A stretch of DNA of 64,000 bases. Source: Escherichia coli. Lineage in GTDB: Bacteria > Pseudomonadota > Gammaproteobacteria > Enterobacterales > Enterobacteriaceae. The position numbers and the translations under genes were made by a program. Every line of letters starts with the position of its first letter. Within the stretch, counting starts at the first letter, position 1. The stretch is taken from NCBI RefSeq assembly GCF_003991155.1, contig NZ_CP031294.1; one strand, given 5' to 3'. Of the stretch, positions 2,640 to 64,000 are shown in pieces. The notes beneath the pieces were generated by a model that was not told the DNA's origin, did not search any database, and was given only the letters and a program-made list of their open reading frames with translations.

Positions 2640-3065
2640 TCAATCTTCTTGTTTAGGGAAAAACTGTTCAATAACTCTGTCAACGGCTGTGTCTATATGG
2701 AGTAGATGCCACACAACCATATCTTTGCTTCCCATGCCTTGTGTGAATATCACGTCATACTTACGCCATGCGCAGTGGAACCAATATGCTGAGTCATCAA
2801 TTGGTAAATCCTCTCCCGCCTCTTTGAAGTATTTCAGCAGCATTGCCTGCTCTGCCGTTGGCGTTGGACCTATTTCCTGAGCGTACATACGGATGAATCG
2901 CTGCCAGTCTGTCTCGTCGGGGGTTGGATCTGGTGGGGTCATTTCTGCGATAGCGTTTCGTAGCTGATGCGCCCAATCAGGTTCAGGAAAGCCTTTTGCT
3001 ACTTCATCATCAATAACATCCAGAGCCACGTTTGCGGCATCGTAGAGTTTCTTAATAACTGTCAT
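2640..3065 (-). CDS. Hypothetical protein
   Basis: 141-aa ORF preceded by an AAGGA-type RBS and the conserved palindromic upstream motif at 3077-3100. Confidence 0.45.
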   Translation of the reverse strand: MTVIKKLYDAANVALDVIDDEVAKGFPEPDWAHQLRNAIAEMTPPDPTPDETDWQRFIRMYAQEIGPTPTAEQAMLLKYFKEAGEDLPIDDSAYWFHCAWRKYDVIFTQGMGSKDMVVWHLLHIDTAVDRVIEQFFPKQED

Positions 3066-3110
3066 GTTTTCTTATCCTTTTAAACAAATTGTTTTCTTAA
3101 TAAGATAATT

Positions 3111-3140
3111 GCGATAAAAAAGGCGTCCAACTGGACGCCT
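3111..3140 (-). terminator. Rho-independent terminator (minus strand)
   Basis: Hairpin AGGCGTCC-AACT-GGACGCCT followed on the minus strand by a T-run (plus-strand AAAAA at 3116-3120). Confidence 0.5.
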
Positions 3141-3156
3141 GAACTTTTTAGGGGAG

Positions 3157-3987
3157 TTATTTCACTGTAATGAAAGGAGTGTTAGCCCCTTGAGTCATGT
3201 ACTGCGGTAACTGGCCATTCCATTTATTGATGGCTTCCAGTTCCATAACGTTCGGGTTTTGACGCAGAGCTTCACCGCGCAGACGAATGGCGTCCGCTTC
3301 TGCTTGCGCACGAGCACGGATAGCATCAGCTTCACCATTAGCCTGTTCACGTAGCATATTCGCCTCAGCTTTACGTTGTTCAACTTCCTGCTGACGTTGC
3401 AGAGTACGCTGGTTAGCCGTTACTTTGGCGTTAATAGATTCAATGACAGTTTTTGGGTAATCAGGCTTTCCAACCCATGACAGGCTCAGTACCTCAATAC
3501 CAACCGGAGACATCTCTTTCTGAATATCTTTCAGTGCGTTGTCCAGCAATTGTGCCTTACCACCGTCGATAAATGAGTCAGTGGTCATACGGCTGGCCAA
3601 ACGGTTTAGAGAGTCGGCAATTTTCTGACGCAGATCTGATTCGGTGATATCGTCTACGCCTTTGCGATAGGTCTGGAACACCGTCGTTACCTTGTCACGA
3701 TTAACCAGATACGCAACGCCAATTTTGTGACCAATAGCAGTACCGTCACTCATCTGGAATGTGAACGGCTCGTCGTAGGTCTTCATTTGTTTGAAGGTCG
3801 GGAATACGTAAAGTTCGGTGTTAAGACCTGTCCATTGGCGACCAACGCCAACCACTTCACCAATCCCTTTGTCTTCACCTAATTTGTTTACTTTGATGCC
3901 AACGTATCCAGGCTCCACGCGATCGCAGCCAGTAAGACCCATTGTGCAAATAGCCGCCAGAGCAACTGCAAGTAAACCTTTCTTCAT
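3157..3987 (-). CDS. SPFH/band-7 (HflK/YqiK-like) lipoprotein
   Basis: Signal peptide with lipobox LTGC; C-terminal Ala/Glu/Arg/Gln-rich coiled region typical of the SPFH family. Confidence 0.55.
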   Translation of the reverse strand: MKKGLLAVALAAICTMGLTGCDRVEPGYVGIKVNKLGEDKGIGEVVGVGRQWTGLNTELYVFPTFKQMKTYDEPFTFQMSDGTAIGHKIGVAYLVNRDKVTTVFQTYRKGVDDITESDLRQKIADSLNRLASRMTTDSFIDGGKAQLLDNALKDIQKEMSPVGIEVLSLSWVGKPDYPKTVIESINAKVTANQRTLQRQQEVEQRKAEANMLREQANGEADAIRARAQAEADAIRLRGEALRQNPNVMELEAINKWNGQLPQYMTQGANTPFITVK

Positions 3988-3990
3988 TAC

Positions 3991-4191
3991 TTATTTCCCC
4001 TTTGCTTTGATTAATGAGTTGATAAACTTACGACCAGCAATAAGACCGATTACAGGAGCACCAAAACCAACGATAACTCCAAACATGACGGCTAAATCAC
4101 TCTTGGTAGAAATCAGCGACGGAACCAGTAAACCGTAGATGAGAGCCACTGAAAGGCCTGTGGCTACTGCCAATAGATAGATTTTGATCAT
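3991..4191 (-). CDS. Small integral membrane protein (possible NfeD-like partner of the SPFH protein)
   Basis: 66 aa with two hydrophobic helices; stop lies 4 nt before the SPFH start. Confidence 0.4.
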   Translation of the reverse strand: MIKIYLLAVATGLSVALIYGLLVPSLISTKSDLAVMFGVIVGFGAPVIGLIAGRKFINSLIKAKGK

Positions 4192-4251
4192 GTGTTTTCC
4201 TATGTGGTTGTTATGCGAAAATAATAAGTAAGTGCTTATATATTTTCAAGA

Positions 4252-4279
4252 GATAAAAAAGGCGTCCTGTGGACGCCTT
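4252..4279 (-). terminator. Rho-independent terminator (minus strand)
   Basis: Hairpin GGCGTCC-TGT-GGACGCC with a T-run on the minus strand (plus-strand AAAAAA at 4255-4260). Confidence 0.5.
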
Positions 4280-4283
4280 GTGT

Positions 4284-5357
4284 TTACTCTTCTACTGACT
4301 CGGTGGGGTTGTCTTTTGCTCTTCGGTCGTCGATTGCCTGCAAAGCCGCAATGATTTCAGCCAGTGGCTTCTCCCGATACATCTCGACGATCTGCGATTT
4401 GGTGTATTTCTTGTCACCAATTTCAACTCGCCCGCTGGCGTTCTTTGGCAGGTATCCTTCTTCCAGCATGTACTCGACGAGCGATTCGATAACGTCGAGG
4501 CCACGAGTAGGATCGAAGTAGAATTTCCAGGTGCATTTGCCATACGGTGGTGCAACTTTGTTTTTGATGCATTCTGCGCCTACGTCCTGGCCGATCTTCT
4601 CTTTACCATCCTTCATCACCGATGCACCAAGACGGATACGTACAGAAGCGTAGAACTTCGGTGAATCTCCACCTGGCGACGTAGTAGGGTCGCCAAACAT
4701 TACACCGATTTTTGTGCGAACCTGATTCAAGAAGATGATGCAGGCGTTGTATTTGCGTGCCCACAAAGCCAGAGTAGGGAAGTTCGCACTCGTCGCACGA
4801 GCCAGTGCCGTATTGTCGTTCATGTTTAGCTGATCTTTGTCTTTGGCAGTGCCTTCAGCCATCTTTTCGAACTTCTCGGCTTTGGAGTTCGGAACCATAG
4901 ACGCAAGAGAGTCAGCCACGATACAGATTGGTGCTGATTCGGGGATAAGCTCTTCATCACGAACCAATTTAAGTATTGTGCCGATCAACTCTACAGAGTC
5001 TTCGAAGGTATCTGGCTGCTTGTATACCCACTGACCGTCATCCTCATCTGCGTTCAGGCCATTGGCGACAGCCAGGCCAACGTCAAAACTGTTTTCATGA
5101 TCGAGGAATACCGCCAGACCATCTTGTTTTTGAGCGGAGATCATCGCTGCTGTTGCAAGGAACGTTTTCCCTGCACTTGGAGGACCGAATACTTCGACGA
5201 TACGACCACAAGGGAAGCCGCCATCGTAACGACCAGAAATAGCTTTGTTTAACGGTGGAAAGCCTGTATCAATCCAATGAGTTACTTTCTGAATTTCGTC
5301 GTTGCTACCGATTTTCTTTTTCAGAGCAAGTGCCAGTGCGGATTTTCCTTTTGCCAT
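4284..5357 (-). CDS. RecA-family recombinase (RecA/UvsX-like)
   Basis: Walker A GPPSAGKT, Walker B-like ICIVADS, RecA-like core of 357 aa. Confidence 0.65.
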   Translation of the reverse strand: MAKGKSALALALKKKIGSNDEIQKVTHWIDTGFPPLNKAISGRYDGGFPCGRIVEVFGPPSAGKTFLATAAMISAQKQDGLAVFLDHENSFDVGLAVANGLNADEDDGQWVYKQPDTFEDSVELIGTILKLVRDEELIPESAPICIVADSLASMVPNSKAEKFEKMAEGTAKDKDQLNMNDNTALARATSANFPTLALWARKYNACIIFLNQVRTKIGVMFGDPTTSPGGDSPKFYASVRIRLGASVMKDGKEKIGQDVGAECIKNKVAPPYGKCTWKFYFDPTRGLDVIESLVEYMLEEGYLPKNASGRVEIGDKKYTKSQIVEMYREKPLAEIIAALQAIDDRRAKDNPTESVEE

Positions 5358-5359
5358 GA

Positions 5360-5632
5360 TCAGGCTCCTTTTGTTTCGTTGATTCGTTTTAAAGCGGCGG
5401 ATTCATCGAATACAATCGCATCGTGGTTAAGGAGTCTGGATACACGAGCGAGGATTTTTACGACCTGCTCGCTGACTAATCCAAACTCGCGATCTGTCGC
5501 TTTCATTCCGGCAGCGCCTAGAATTGACGGCAGTGCGATGACAGCGTACTCACCGTGATAAAAGACAATCTCTTTTGCCAGTTGGGCAGGGGTGGTTGTA
5601 GCGCCATTGATAATCGATTTAAGCATTAGCAA
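5360..5632 (-). CDS. Hypothetical protein
   Basis: 90-aa ORF tightly packed between the recombinase and flap endonuclease genes. Confidence 0.35.
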   Translation of the reverse strand: MLMLKSIINGATTTPAQLAKEIVFYHGEYAVIALPSILGAAGMKATDREFGLVSEQVVKILARVSRLLNHDAIVFDESAALKRINETKGA

Positions 5633-6621
5633 TACCTTTCGAATGGAAGAACAAACACTTCAAGGTCTTCAAGGAACGAACGGAAATTCAGCTCGTAGCA
5701 CAGTTGCTCGAATGCTTTCACGTCACGATTGCCTTTGATTGTTTCGATTTCGGTAGGCGGAAACTTCGTCTCAATCAGGTTCATTAGCGTGATGTTTCTC
5801 TTGAACGCTTCGAGCATTCGACAGCCTGTTTTCTCGTTGAAGGCATTCTTCGCTAGTTTGTTGAAGGCGGTCTTATGACGCCCTTTATTAACCACGATTG
5901 AGCCGTCGTTGATGCCGCGTACCATCGTTGCGACACTTCCCCATTCATGCAGCAGCTCTTTCGCACCGCCAGCACCAATGCCACCAACACCGCTAATGTT
6001 GTCCGAGTTATCGCCTTGTAATGCTTTTGCTTCCAAAAATGCGCGAGGCGTGGCGAATCCTGTCAGCTCCGCAAATTGCTCAAAATTAACCTGCTTGTTT
6101 TTGGCGTCTTCACGCAGGCTTACCCAGCTTACGTTTTCACGAACTAACTGAAGCCAGTCGCTATCGCCTGTTAACAGATAGATGTGTTCAACGGTTGGCT
6201 GCGGTGCCATGCGGGATACCAGCAGCCCGGCCAGATCATCCGCTTCTGCATCTTTTGCAATGAGTTGGGTAACTCCAAGCGCGGTCATCATTTTGAGGAT
6301 GTATGGCTTCTGGATAGCAAAGCCTTCCTTCATCTTTTTCATATCAGGATCGTCGTCGCGATTTGCTTTGTAGTCCGGGTAAAAGTCGCGACGCTTGTCA
6401 CTAAATCCATCCCAAAGAATCATAGGTCGGGCATGGAGGATGGAGGCATAACGACGGACGTTCTTAACAAAGCCGAAAGCAGCCTGTACTTCCATTTCGC
6501 CGTTGTGCAATTTGTCAGATTGTTGGTGGTAATAACCCAGGCTATTGCCATCTACGAAGAGATAATTCACCGGTACATTCCTTCCAAAAAGTAAGGCGTC
6601 CGTAGACGCCTTACTGGTCAC
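5626..6621 (-). CDS. Flap endonuclease / 5'-3' exonuclease (RNase H-like, FEN family)
   Basis: Acidic catalytic clusters (AKDAEADD, TGDSDWLQL) and an H3TH-like glycine-rich segment (NISGVGGIGAGGAKELL). Confidence 0.7.
   Translation of the reverse strand: MTSKASTDALLFGRNVPVNYLFVDGNSLGYYHQQSDKLHNGEMEVQAAFGFVKNVRRYASILHARPMILWDGFSDKRRDFYPDYKANRDDDPDMKKMKEGFAIQKPYILKMMTALGVTQLIAKDAEADDLAGLLVSRMAPQPTVEHIYLLTGDSDWLQLVRENVSWVSLREDAKNKQVNFEQFAELTGFATPRAFLEAKALQGDNSDNISGVGGIGAGGAKELLHEWGSVATMVRGINDGSIVVNKGRHKTAFNKLAKNAFNEKTGCRMLEAFKRNITLMNLIETKFPPTEIETIKGNRDVKAFEQLCYELNFRSFLEDLEVFVLPFERYC
6584..6612 (-). terminator. Rho-independent terminator (minus strand)
   Basis: Hairpin AAGGCGTC-CGTA-GACGCCTT with a minus-strand T-run (plus-strand CCAAAAAG). 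Confidence 0.5.
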
Positions 6622-6630
6622 GTAATGGGA

Positions 6631-7659
6631 TTACAGAGAGTCCAGCTCTCTCAGTAGGTCATCCAGACCTTCATCTTCCGTCGCAGATGCGGTTGCTACA
6701 GATGTCGCTGCGACTGCTTCAGACTCTTTGACTGATACGGCAACGGCAGCGGAACTTGCCTCTGGTTTAAATTCAGTTTCAACGGCACGGAGGATTTCTT
6801 CATCAACCAGACTGGTTGGTTCAGAAGCCGGTGTGTGCGCGGTTGCTACAGCCGTCGCTCCTTCTGTATGACCAGTGACAGAGCCAAATCCAGGCAGTGC
6901 CGCGGTCGATGTTTTCGCGGTAGAGGAAATTGCTGGTGCAGATGCAGAGGCAGTTGGTGCTGCGATGCCAATCAGACGACCCATAGTGCGAACTGTCGAG
7001 AGAAGACGAGTTTCATCAGCCTGATTTGCGTATGCGATCAGGTCATGCTGGGTATTCCAGAATTTATCTTCGATATCGCCTTTGTAGACTTTACGCTTAG
7101 GCGAGACGTCATATTTGGTATCGCGACCAGAGCCAGTACGTTTAATCAGGAATGCGTAGCCTTCCTCTTTGCTCAGTGGATTGCCGATATCATCAGCGAT
7201 GTCTTCGGTGATTGCTTTGCAGATATCATCGAATACAGTAGACGGCAGCTCGATTAACTGGCATTTCTCAGCATCTGCGAAATCCTCACGAGCAGAAAGA
7301 ATGCCGTTGACCAGGTAGCGAGGCGTGGCACGCATTTGACCGATGCGTTCTTCCATTGCTTTGTTACCCTTGTGACGAGCGCGACCTTCCATCACCATTT
7401 CGCATAGCTGACAAGCGCGACCGTGAGTATGTTGCTCACAAATATAAGCGTTGGTTGCTTCTTTACCTTCCTCGTTCTGATACTTAACGTAGTGCATACC
7501 GAAAGTCTGGAAGAACTTACCGTTTGGGTCGTCTTTATTCGGGAAGATGCGGATATAGTTGACGCCGTCTTTTAAGCGAGTCAGATCAACGTTGTTACCA
7601 CGTTTGGCGGCAATGTCTTCACGAGTTTTGTTAAGCAAATCAAGTAATGTCTTAGACAT
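6631..7659 (-). CDS. Putative ssDNA-binding protein (gp32-like)
   Basis: Cys/His cluster CEQHTHGRACQLC resembling a zinc-binding subdomain, Ala/Ser/Thr-rich linker and acidic C-terminal tail (EDEGLDDLLRELDSL); sits between nuclease and polymerase genes. Confidence 0.4.
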   Translation of the reverse strand: MSKTLLDLLNKTREDIAAKRGNNVDLTRLKDGVNYIRIFPNKDDPNGKFFQTFGMHYVKYQNEEGKEATNAYICEQHTHGRACQLCEMVMEGRARHKGNKAMEERIGQMRATPRYLVNGILSAREDFADAEKCQLIELPSTVFDDICKAITEDIADDIGNPLSKEEGYAFLIKRTGSGRDTKYDVSPKRKVYKGDIEDKFWNTQHDLIAYANQADETRLLSTVRTMGRLIGIAAPTASASAPAISSTAKTSTAALPGFGSVTGHTEGATAVATAHTPASEPTSLVDEEILRAVETEFKPEASSAAVAVSVKESEAVAATSVATASATEDEGLDDLLRELDSL

Positions 7660-7776: not shown

Positions 7777-8208
7777 TCAACGGGGAGTAATAAAGCGTTC
7801 AGAGCCTAATCGCTCTAATTCAACGATGGCCATCTTTGACGCCTGAACGATCATGTCTCGGCGATGCGAAAAGGCGGCGACAGCATGTTTGTATATGTCT
7901 GCGATGTGCCGTGCTTCATCCAACTTCTGCCGTTTAGACAGATACTGTGGGTTTGTTTTAACCTTAGCGTCCAGTACAGATTCGTTGAACTTAATGCCAT
8001 TCATACTCAAGTTCTTACGCTCTGTGTCGTATAGCTTTGCTTCAACAGCTTCAAGGTTAAGTTTTGCTTCTGCGACACTTCTTTCTGCATGGGCGAGTTT
8101 TGAGCCATATTCCATCAACAGGCGGGGTTGTCTACGCCAGACTTCTTCCAGATTGTCTCGGTCAAACTCGAGATCGGACATGATTTTTTCGTATATATTG
8201 GTGCTCAT
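7777..8208 (-). CDS. Hypothetical protein (predicted coiled coil)
   Basis: 143-aa ORF with no recognisable catalytic motif. Confidence 0.4.
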   Translation of the reverse strand: MSTNIYEKIMSDLEFDRDNLEEVWRRQPRLLMEYGSKLAHAERSVAEAKLNLEAVEAKLYDTERKNLSMNGIKFNESVLDAKVKTNPQYLSKRQKLDEARHIADIYKHAVAAFSHRRDMIVQASKMAIVELERLGSERFITPR

Positions 8209-16400: not shown

Positions 16401-16498
16401 GGCTAATCCTTTGTTATGAAAACAAATTATTTACTAGTGTGTTTAATGTAGCACTGCGCGAACAGGGAACTAAGCCATTCGCGCAGGGAGAAGAGGGG

Positions 16499-27946: not shown

Positions 27947-29191
27947 TGCTGCAATGCCTTTCACCTTGCTTAAGAGTTCAAGCTGTCGTGAGTAAGGTTT
28001 TGCGCAATAGTAGGCTTTGATAATCTGCCCCGGGGTCGCATCGCCGGGGTCGAGTCCTTCCTCGCCCAAACATGCAATTTTCACATTAAGACCAATACTG
28101 CTCAGTCGCCTGGCTGCGGCCATAGTGTTGCGTATAGCTTGCTTTTCACTATCCCACATCATGATCACATTACGTAACCCACGCGCCTTGAGCGTCAGGA
28201 ACGCGCCTAACTGATCTTCTGCATCCTGAGTGGTGTTACCAGATAGATGCATCCCGAACGTTCCTATTGGTTCCACGTAATCACGTAATGTTTCTTCGTC
28301 AAAAATAGCTCGTTTAACCCCCATAACATCGAACGCCCCCTCACAGACAACTACAGTCTGTTTGCCGACTGCATTATGGCCGTTGTAGAGAAACTTACCT
28401 GAAGCTGGAAGCTGCATAGGAAAGAGGTAGCGGCGTTCTGCTGTACCGGTAATGTCTCGTCCCTGAAATGTCTTCATTACCCCATCCAGATCGTAAACCG
28501 GTATCAGTATTCGCATATCGAATATCTGCCCTTTTACCTGATCTGTATACGGATCTACATAAGCGTGCTTGCCTTCGACGCAGTATCGTAGGTCAAAATA
28601 CTTTGCCATTTCAGGTGATATGTTTCGTTCAACCAGATAGTCTGGAAGACGGCCATCTATAGGAAGCTCGTAATGACGAGGGAGTGCAACTGGCCCCTCT
28701 AACTCGACTGTGCTTGCAAGCACTAGCTCTTCTTTCTTTGGTGCCCACCCCTGGGAAAGAAGGGCGTTCTGCACATATTCCTCGAACTGTCGTCGTGATT
28801 TGCCGCTGTAGTGCTTGAGGAAGACCAGCTTATTGAACTGAATCTCTTCGGGATGATCACCAGCGAAGCATTTACCGACGCCACTGGTCAGATTGAAATA
28901 TACCTTCCAGTTGGAGCTGCCGCATACCGGACACTCTTTGATATTCACTTCACGACCGCGAGCACTCACACCTCCACGTCGATAAACGATACCTTCAGTA
29001 TCCAACCATTGTTCAAAATCTAATTCGGCAATTAGCTCTTTCAGCTCGCTCACGATAATTCCACTTTTAACAGGCAATATTGTGACCAACCTAAATGTTG
29101 ATATAACATAAAGGCTCATGTGTTTTTCTTTTGTGGTTTGGCAAAAGAAAAGTTGTTTCACCAATGAATCAAGCGTGGAGGTGTTCTCCAC
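27938..29191 (-). CDS. DNA primase (zinc-ribbon + TOPRIM, T7 gp4-primase-like)
   Basis: Zn-ribbon CPVCGSS...GKCF, TOPRIM-like VVVCEGAFD and acidic MWDSEK. Confidence 0.7.
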   Translation of the reverse strand: MENTSTLDSLVKQLFFCQTTKEKHMSLYVISTFRLVTILPVKSGIIVSELKELIAELDFEQWLDTEGIVYRRGGVSARGREVNIKECPVCGSSNWKVYFNLTSGVGKCFAGDHPEEIQFNKLVFLKHYSGKSRRQFEEYVQNALLSQGWAPKKEELVLASTVELEGPVALPRHYELPIDGRLPDYLVERNISPEMAKYFDLRYCVEGKHAYVDPYTDQVKGQIFDMRILIPVYDLDGVMKTFQGRDITGTAERRYLFPMQLPASGKFLYNGHNAVGKQTVVVCEGAFDVMGVKRAIFDEETLRDYVEPIGTFGMHLSGNTTQDAEDQLGAFLTLKARGLRNVIMMWDSEKQAIRNTMAAARRLSSIGLNVKIACLGEEGLDPGDATPGQIIKAYYCAKPYSRQLELLSKVKGIAALV

Positions 29192-29200
29192 GCTTATTTT

Positions 29201-30541: not shown

Positions 30542-30584
30542 GTGCTTTCCTTTGTTTTTTAAACAAATTGTTTTCTAGTATTAG

Positions 30585-34277: not shown

Positions 34278-34453
34278 TGGAGAGTTCCCTTTGCGTATAT
34301 AATTATCGTCTGAAACAACTTGTTTTCTTATATGTGATATAGCCTAAATGCCTACGGCTGTGGTGTAAAGGTTAAATGGTAGGTGCTGCCTTAGAATTTT
34401 TAGGCGAGAATTAATGGCTGTTAACAAAAAAGGCGACCAAAGTCGCCTGATTT

Positions 34454-57492: not shown

Positions 57493-57536
57493 AACGCATT
57501 CTCTCTACATGGGCGGCTTTCGCCGCCCAATATTGA

Positions 57537-63830: not shown

Positions 63831-64000
63831 AGATCCCTCTAAAACACACAGAGCGCGTCCATGCGCTCTAAAACAACTTGTTTACTGCATCTGCTAACCA
63901 ACTTGTTTTCTGGGGTGTTTAATTAGGTCTGGCATGTCTTACGAAGCCTGCTTCCGTATATATTTAATAAGTTACTTATTATTTATATATACAGATGCAG

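Follow-up and report, generated by a model that had tools for sequence, protein, structure and literature searches.

We analysed a 64,000-nt stretch of Escherichia coli DNA (the window; contig NZ_CP031294.1 of RefSeq assembly GCF_003991155.1) that belongs to the SSU5/pHCM2/pMT1 group of phage-plasmids, and focused on three hairpins, here named T1, T2 and T3, that lie at gene ends in a recombination-gene block where every gene is on the minus strand. The explanation we favour, and hold to be likely as a whole, is that all three are Rho-independent terminators, that T1 and T2 form a paralogous repeat around an accessory transcription unit, that T1 is fused to the next promoter, and that T3 acts within an operon. 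Figures given below for the whole plasmid combine the window with the remainder of NZ_OW849379.1 (110,667 bp; remainder labelled L005), a record whose positions 1-64000 are identical to the window. The plasmid shares 97-99% identity with Escherichia phages CMS-2020a, PhiR41_1 and Cyrano and about 80% with Salmonella phage SSU5.

Sequence, rarity and conservation of the three hairpins

A first-pass annotation of the window had reported terminators with nearly identical stems after an SPFH gene, a recombinase gene and a gene for a protein resembling single-strand DNA-binding protein (SSB), and terminator-like hairpins do lie at the coordinates that it gave (T1, 3121-3140; T2, given as 4261-4279 and here taken as 4259-4279; T3 core, 6593-6612), 3-16 nt past minus-strand stop codons of genes whose labels agree with their Pfam assignments (Band_7/SPFH, RecA and gp32). 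The hairpins and their tracts are as follows.

3121..3140, minus strand: T1, sense AGGCGTCC AGTT GGACGCCT, then TTTTTATC; as RNA, AGGCGUCC AGUU GGACGCCU
3113-3120, minus strand: U tract of T1, UUUUUAUC, directly after the stem
4259..4279, minus strand: T2, sense AAGGCGTCC ACA GGACGCCTT, then TTTTATC; as RNA, AAGGCGUCC ACA GGACGCCUU, then UUUUAUC
4252-4258, minus strand: U tract of T2, UUUUAUCU, directly after the stem
6590..6615 (core 6593-6612), minus strand: T3, an 11-bp hairpin, AGTAAGGCGTC TACG GACGCCTTACT, then TTTT; as RNA, AGUAAGGCGUC UACG GACGCCUUACU, then UUUU

The shared core that had been proposed holds in part: AGGCGTC/GACGCCT occurs in all three hairpins, whereas the full consensus of nine plus nine nucleotides, AAGGCGTCC-N3-4-GGACGCCTT, fits T2 only, and the T3 core is AAGGCGTC/GACGCCTT, minus the innermost C-G pair. 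Stems of 8, 9 and 11 bp (T1, T2 and T3, respectively), each with six G-C pairs, enclose loops of 3-4 nt, with predicted folding energies of -15.6, -20.6 and -21.9 kcal/mol and z-scores of -4.1, -5.1 and -3.5. In T1 and T2 a run of six U begins in the 3' arm and is completed by the U tract, and the tract of T3 is the weakest of the three (UUUU past the 11-bp stem, or ACUUUUU past the 8-bp core). All three thus combine the hallmarks of Rho-independent terminators, namely a stable GC-rich hairpin, a U-rich tract 3' of it and a sense position past a gene end, and the earlier reading of them as terminators agrees with every sequence feature that could be tested as well as with gene-level RNA-seq of the 97%-identical phage Cyrano.

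The shared core is rare. The pattern AGGCGTC-N3-8-GACGCCT has exactly 3 matches in the window versus none in 100 dinucleotide-preserving shuffles, and among the roughly 23 credible terminator hairpins of the plasmid, whose stems are diverse, the core is common to T1-T3 only. The search for further copies that the first-pass annotation had proposed, run here across the 110.7-kb replicon with at most one mismatch per arm, found none beyond these three; the remaining near matches of the one-mismatch scan were a chance match in a coding region at 4675 and GGCGGC/GCCGCC at 57512. We computed the odds of a coincidence with a position-specific model that was built from the other terminators and is deliberately generous, under which a 6-bp core recurs in one given other terminator with P of about 6e-4 (about 1% for any of 21), and any 6-bp core is common to at least 3 of 23 terminators with P of about 0.04. 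Taken conservatively, the three-way coincidence has a chance of a few per cent or less under the composition model.

Two other hairpins of the window deserve mention. The terminator closest in sequence to T1-T3 (34431-34448) has a flipped stem, AGGCGAC UUUG GUCGCCU (DNA AGGCGAC/GTCGCCT), that differs by a T-A to A-T pair swap; with A and T runs on both sides it looks bidirectional, and a copy of the operator motif described below lies about 100 nt downstream. The T run of a strong 11-bp hairpin at 29171-29195 is on the plus strand, whereas the two neighbouring genes, for primase and a DnaB-like helicase, are on the minus strand; the hairpin is kept in SSU5 with a changed loop and lower stem, and may terminate antisense or convergent transcription. 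An Rfam search of 2.5-8.5 kb (E-value mode) gave no match at the hairpins and only a chance-level isrG elsewhere (E = 0.53), and our literature search turned up no account of the T1-T3 terminators or of the operator motif in SSU5-like elements.

To compare relatives, we gathered 80 related loci from IMG/VR with the recombinase protein and read the sequence past each of the three gene ends; a contig scan with the recombinase yielded one locus only (Yersinia pestis) and added little beyond the pMT1 variant. T1 is kept in 41 related loci, and across the relatives the stems of T1-T3 are conserved and their loops and flanks are variable. Among 22 distinct T1/T2 variants, 4 of the 10 pairs show double-sided changes, with G.U intermediates present. 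The covariation score for T1/T2 was 0.119 compared with 0.058 in shuffles, a value reached by none of the 500 shuffles, and the slid controls collapsed. T2 of Y. pestis pMT1, for example, reads GGCGCCC/GGGCGCC, with the intermediate GGCGTCC/GGGCGCC (G.U) found in L042, L046 and L056, and T1 of L174 reads GGCGCCA/TGGCGCC; the G.U intermediates can pair on the sense strand only. These patterns point to selection on the T1-T3 stems as sense-strand RNA structure. We also considered concerted evolution of the three copies and rejected it, as pMT1 alters T2 only, L174 alters T1 only, and both L079 and L174 differ at T2.

An optional cassette between repeated terminators

T1 and T2 resemble each other beyond their stems and enclose a self-contained unit that is present in some relatives and absent from others. 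The repeat, the unit and the surrounding genes, the latter in the direction of transcription, are these.

3113..3140, minus strand: direct-repeat unit 1 (T1 with its T tract), of which 3113-3128 (GATAAAAAAGGCGTCC, plus strand) is identical to 4252-4267
4252..4279, minus strand: direct-repeat unit 2 (T2 with its T tract), at a period of 1139 bp from unit 1; the crossover of cassette-less alleles falls inside the unit
3141..4251, minus strand: optional cassette of about 1.1 kb (promoter, 66-codon open reading frame and SPFH gene), bracketed by the T1/T2 repeats
4221..4249, minus strand: sigma-70-type promoter of the cassette (TTGAAA, 17 nt, TATTAT; 10 of 12 matches; best in 1-20 kb)
7777-8208, minus strand: UvsY-like gene, first of the block in the direction of transcription
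6631..7659, minus strand: gp32-like SSB gene (Pfam gp32), with its stop at 6631 and its transcript predicted to end at T3
5626..6570, minus strand: 5'-3' exonuclease (FEN) gene, downstream of T3, with a GTG start at 6570
between the exonuclease and RecA-like genes, minus strand: a small open reading frame, placed by gene order
4284..5357, minus strand: RecA/UvsX-like recombinase gene (Pfam RecA), with its transcript predicted to end at T2
3991-4191, minus strand: 66-codon open reading frame for a membrane protein, the cassette gene upstream of the SPFH gene
3157-3987, minus strand: SPFH/Band 7 gene (Pfam Band_7/SPFH), followed by T1
2640-3065, minus strand: DUF7238 gene, the next gene after T1

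Identity between T1 and T2 covers 16 nt, running past the stem through the T tract to ATC, plus 8 nt of the other arm. The two E. coli-type viral contigs L062 and L063 have no cassette and retain one hairpin, with the left flank of T2, the T2 loop ACA and the right flank of T1; at their junction the overlap of two BLAST segments, 27 nt long, corresponds to the repeat, as a three-way alignment also showed. The same junction was found in 7 complete E. coli plasmids from PLSDB (of roughly 180) that lack the cassette, and in the Klebsiella-type and L032-type lineages, also cassette-less, a single hairpin again has a T2-type left flank and a T1-type right flank. The suggestion of a duplicated terminator module made in the first-pass annotation is accordingly borne out for T1 and T2, which are direct repeats with the cassette-less junctions inside them, while for T3, whose resemblance is limited to the 8-bp stem, common descent is possible. 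The comparison supports the view that T1 and T2 are paralogous and that the two copies are the ends of an insertion or deletion (indel), so that they would be alike because they are paralogous copies on either side of an accessory unit.

We propose that T1-T3 would terminate leftward (minus-strand) transcription of the recombination-gene block, and that the 27-28-nt repeat of T1 and T2 would flank a self-contained 1.1-kb unit comprising promoter, 66-codon open reading frame, SPFH gene and terminator. Recombination within the repeat would then remove the unit, and the reverse could insert it as a circle; loss would leave one hairpin with the left flank of T2 and the right flank of T1. For the E. 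coli-type clade, deletion of the cassette is more parsimonious than insertion, because only 7 of about 180 plasmids lack it and all 7 have an intein-type recA. The possibility that the hairpin travels with the SPFH gene was discarded: phage P88 and a P1-like plasmid have a 75%-identical SPFH gene, but the sequence past it is unrelated, and the hairpin therefore belongs to the SSU5-type backbone and not to the gene.

The promoter of the cassette begins 3 nt past the repeat unit (hairpin with T tract) and 10 nt past the hairpin stem, and every lineage that has the cassette, even the divergent L174, preserves both hexamers and their spacing. An inverted repeat, ATAAG-N6-CTTAT (4224-4239, minus strand), lies within the spacer and -10 hexamer of this promoter and is likewise preserved in every lineage with the cassette; SSU5-type genomes have it as a perfect TAAGTACTTA palindrome. 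It may serve as an operator, a role that would agree with the way in which cassette expression in Cyrano varies by condition.

Expression could be examined in Cyrano, in which T1 and T3 are the same as in the window and T2 differs in its loop only, since a published RNA-seq study of E. coli LF82 covers this phage (values in its S1 Table given as log2(fpkm+5), where fpkm stands for fragments per kilobase per million; PMC9928086). In macrophages at 6 h, the cassette genes (CYRAN_56 and CYRAN_57) stand at 7.3-7.7, compared with 4.05 for the RecA gene, which lies upstream, and about 4.1 for the gene on the downstream side (PMC9928086). The SSB gene exceeds the exonuclease gene in every condition, with 5.1-5.2 versus 2.7 in condition B1 (PMC9928086), and the cassette genes are not among the Cyrano genes at least 5-fold above background in lysogeny broth (LB; PMC9928086, Table 1). 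Expression therefore steps by roughly 10-fold across T1, T2 and T3 in these gene-level, low-depth data, as expected if T2 insulates the cassette, the cassette promoter drives it, T1 ends it and T3 stops most SSB transcripts.

Two further features of this neighbourhood vary among relatives. The site past the recombinase terminator (the equivalent of window 3100-4280) is an insertion hot spot, as seen in L003 and L048 (pJN2-26 type), L055, L174 and L019, where, instead of the SPFH cassette or next to it, there are two genes on the opposite strand together with another terminator, some 2 kb of DNA with no relation to the cassette, one additional gene on the opposite strand, or an SPFH gene that is truncated; no second hairpin copy bounds the alternative inserts in any of these loci. 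Inside the RecA-like gene, at about 5166-5168 of the window, many relatives (Cyrano, PhiR41_1 and numerous E. coli and Klebsiella plasmids) have an insertion of about 1.3 kb that is annotated as an intein or a LAGLIDADG homing endonuclease, and the copy in the window is uninterrupted.

T1 and the next promoter, and T3 within an operon

Downstream of T1 lies an operator-like palindrome that is one member of a larger family. The 17-nt motif AAGAAAACAANTTGTTT (core AAACAA-N-TTGTTT) occurs 16 times in the plasmid, versus 0.05 in shuffles, and 19 times in SSU5; in the window alone it occurs 6 times versus 0.1 expected. Its copies are located as follows.

3082..3098, minus strand: AAGAAAACAATTTGTTT, core AAACAA-N-TTGTTT, in the promoter downstream of T1
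3082-3098, 16416-16432, 30561-30577, 34313-34329, 63871-63887 and 63896-63912: the copies in the window
ten more in L005: for example at record positions 73013, 73498, 75151, 75635, 78270 and 91069

The motif is nearly always on the sense strand, 15-50 nt before the ribosome-binding site and start codon of early or replication genes. When sequences are anchored on it, the family has a common layout: a TTKnnn hexamer, sCCTTwT, about 9 nt, a GATAAT-like hexamer, (T)AACACCAAC and the palindrome. From its sequence, the family looks like a set of sigma-70-type promoters with an operator near the start site, and in logic it resembles the many C1 operators of P1.

The end of the T1 loop, its 3' arm and its T tract (TTGGAC GCCTTTTTT; TTGGAC GCCTTTT) coincide with the hexamer and the sCCTTwT element of this family. 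Besides T1, 5 of 12 and 6 of 11 members of the family have CCTT between -38 and -19, compared with a background of 0.06, and one SSU5 member has TTGGACGCCTTAT at the place equivalent to T1 without a complementary 5' arm. The loops of T1 end in TT before GGAC in every lineage (AGTT, ACTT, ATT and GAGTTG), and those of T2 are free in cassette-bearing genomes (ACA, GAAT, AAAC, ACT, ATA and AAT). We infer that T1 (or, in genomes without the cassette, their one hairpin) represents the ancestral hairpin, a terminator that would be fused to the promoter of the next operon at its -35 region, such that T1 would have a dual role; this overlap would help explain the particular stem sequence.

T3 lies between the stop of the SSB gene (6631) and the GTG start of the exonuclease gene (6570) and has a C(UACG)G tetraloop; in relatives the loop is always UNCG closed by C-G (UACG, UGCG or UUCG). 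It is probably an intra-operon, partial (attenuating) terminator, which would let the abundant message of the gp32-like SSB end before the exonuclease gene, with the UNCG tetraloop stabilising the 3' end. The longest open reading frame of the exonuclease, at 5626-6621, spans the hairpin from an upstream start (GTG 6621 in the window, ATG in Klebsiella records), and two Klebsiella phage records (L003, pJN2-26, 6296-6306 region; L004, 6367-6377 region) use the upstream ATG and so place T3 inside the coding sequence. Conservation of T3 as part of an N-terminally extended exonuclease would, however, have to accommodate 1-nt indels between T3 and GTG 6570 (a deletion in L034, insertions in L057 and L081) that break the frame, and these rule out T3 as coding sequence. 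The upstream start is moreover lost in several lineages (e.g., GTA in L083 and GAG in L042), the Shine-Dalgarno sequence GGAAGGA precedes the inner GTG, and both the Prokaryotic Genome Annotation Pipeline (PGAP) and the SSU5 record start the exonuclease there. The region of T3 is therefore non-coding, and we give the protein-coding account almost no credence.

As for the origin of its stem, T3 may be an older copy of the T1/T2 hairpin or may have converged on a common stem class. Convergence is reasonable here because the 8-bp stem class is frequent in unrelated phages and the likeness of T3 ends at that stem.

Alternative explanations and known systems

Several points weigh against the explanation that we favour. 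Termination is inferred from the anatomy of the hairpins and from low-depth, gene-level RNA-seq of a relative, in which, moreover, the Cyrano RecA gene reads above the upstream exonuclease gene, a relation that simple read-through at T3 does not explain. All 7 cassette-less E. coli plasmids have an intein-type recA and so possibly reflect a single event, and for the deep lineages the event may have been either an insertion or a deletion. In L079 and L174, which diverge most among the relatives with the cassette, T2 is another hairpin, and the T1/T2 duplication is therefore not ancestral to all cassette-bearing genomes and is younger than the cassette in at least some lineages. At 45.3% GC, compared with 45.7% for the plasmid, the cassette does not stand out in composition as foreign. 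The -35 match of T1, TTGGAC, agrees with TTGACA at only 3 of 6 positions, and the promoter family is heterogeneous. For T3, common descent with T1 and T2 is possible, and both an older copy and convergence stand.

Independent convergence of all three hairpins on a favoured design, AGGCG(T/A)CC...GG(A/T)CGCCUUU, would dispense with duplication altogether. In IMG/VR, the stem AGGCGTCC-N3-4-GGACGCCTTT (8 bp, followed by TTT) was found in about 13-15 contexts that have no relation to SSU5, of which several directly follow tRNA genes, and the flipped stem AGGCGACC...GGTCGCCTTT in 56, with UUCG and GNRA among the commonest loops, compared with 5 contexts for a scrambled stem of the same composition; from these frequencies it follows that this is a popular terminator stem class, and two further plasmid terminators, at 34431 and 81714, also start with AGGCG. 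Nevertheless, T1 and T2 are identical (16 nt plus 8 nt) beyond the stem and delimit exactly the segment that is present or absent, and the model probability is about 1% per given core, such that we find convergence improbable for the set and live for T3 only. Equally to be weighed is the proposal, which develops the protein or RNase recognition role raised in the first-pass annotation, that some trans-acting factor, such as an RNase, an antiterminator or an RNA-binding regulator of the phage, recognises the shared helix and co-regulates the recombination genes; three copies do lie within 3.5 kb around these genes, and most lineages keep the core intact between variable loops and flanks. Known protein-binding RNA hairpins of phages, such as the lambda and P22 boxB elements bound by N and the coat-protein operators, are recognised via conserved loop or bulge nucleotides; T1-T3 are likewise short, repeated and conserved, but the T1 and T2 loops vary freely, the stems covary and no partner protein is indicated. 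A comparison of 13 other plasmid terminators with their SSU5 counterparts found them equally conserved, with stems kept and loops and flanks varying, so the conservation of T1-T3 is not special, and extra conservation as the sign of a binding factor was ruled out by this control. Nor do these hairpins keep their primary sequence or change together as recognition hairpins would: the core accepts the compensatory swaps GGCGCCC/GGGCGCC (T2) and GGCGCCA/TGGCGCC (T1), T1 and T2 change separately (pMT1), T2 is an unrelated hairpin in three lineages (L079, L174 and pJN2-26), and the stem, which matches no Rfam family, is found in unrelated phages. The recognition role is thus not sustained, and we judge a trans-acting factor very unlikely.

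A different emphasis is placed on DNA if the hairpin repeats are dedicated recombination sites, acting as cruciforms or single-strand hairpins in the manner of integron attC, with termination secondary. The junctions of the cassette indel do fall in a palindromic repeat, the locus past the RecA-like gene is a hot spot with lineage-specific inserts, and the element encodes RecA/UvsX-like, UvsY-like, gp32-like and exonuclease proteins. Yet only two or three copies occur per genome, other inserts arrive without a second hairpin copy, the G.U intermediates and UNCG loops indicate selection on sense-strand RNA and not on DNA, and 16 nt of identity is enough for ordinary short-homology recombination; the dedicated recombinase and the site at every cassette end that integron attC requires are both missing at T1/T2, with no integron-type integrase adjacent, and we consider such sites quite unlikely. 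Somewhat more room, though still as a minority view, can be given to a mobile regulatory junction of the kind known from promoter-early stem-loop (PeSL) cassettes, but here outside the T4-like phages, in which the hairpin with its T tract would be a preferred crossover point of SSU5-type phage-plasmids, accessory units such as the SPFH cassette would be excised as circles and re-inserted, possibly by the element's own RecA/UvsX-, UvsY- and gp32-like proteins, and T1 would serve both as terminator of one unit and as -35 region of the operator-controlled promoter that comes next.

Returning to ordinary terminators, T1-T3 are like the intrinsic terminators of enterobacteria and their phages in stem, loop, U tract and placement, and what is unusual is that 3 of about 23 share a stem. 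PeSL cassettes occur at about 50 per genome in the hyperplastic regions of lytic, T4-type myoviruses (PMC2839356, PMC4122927), and in one subclass the stem-loop overlaps the -35 box (PMC2839356). The likeness to T1/T2 is a composite of terminator stem-loop and sigma-70-like promoter, with repeats that bound accessory genes and indel ends that fall in the repeats, and the overlap of stem-loop and -35 box in the one subclass resembles the arrangement proposed for T1. The differences are that three copies are present in 110.7 kb of a temperate siphovirus-type phage-plasmid, and that here the hairpin and T tract are repeated whereas the promoters after T1 and T2 differ. The T1/T2 arrangement works like a PeSL, yet is outside the PeSL family because copy number and genome type differ. 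The SPFH unit is like a moron (PMC3594210) in its position amid conserved phage genes, in its patchy distribution among relatives and in having a promoter and a terminator of its own; in contrast to morons, its GC content equals that of the genome, and a moron does not usually have a duplicated resident terminator on its two sides. Expression of the unit in Cyrano, by the yardstick used for morons, is below 5-fold over background in LB and, at 6 h in macrophages, exceeds that of either neighbour about 10-fold.

The three hairpins are a correctly observed, ordinary feature and no new mechanism. What they add is, in part, annotation: three terminators, one cassette promoter and one accessory transcription unit for the phage-plasmids pHCM2, pMT1, SSU5 and Cyrano, members of a family that is widespread in clinical E. 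coli, Salmonella, Klebsiella and Yersinia, together with a correction of the exonuclease starts that run through T3 in some records. Beyond the first-pass annotation, our analysis contributes the cassette indel junction in the terminator repeat, the non-coding character and tetraloop of T3, the proposed overlap of terminator and promoter at T1, and the operator family. The T1/T2 repeat is a clean case, found in nature, of an accessory unit gained or lost at a junction that a repeated terminator provides, and extends PeSL logic to a temperate phage-plasmid. The operator and promoter family, which appears to organise the early operons, is maybe the more useful lead, since regulation in SSU5-like elements is poorly described.

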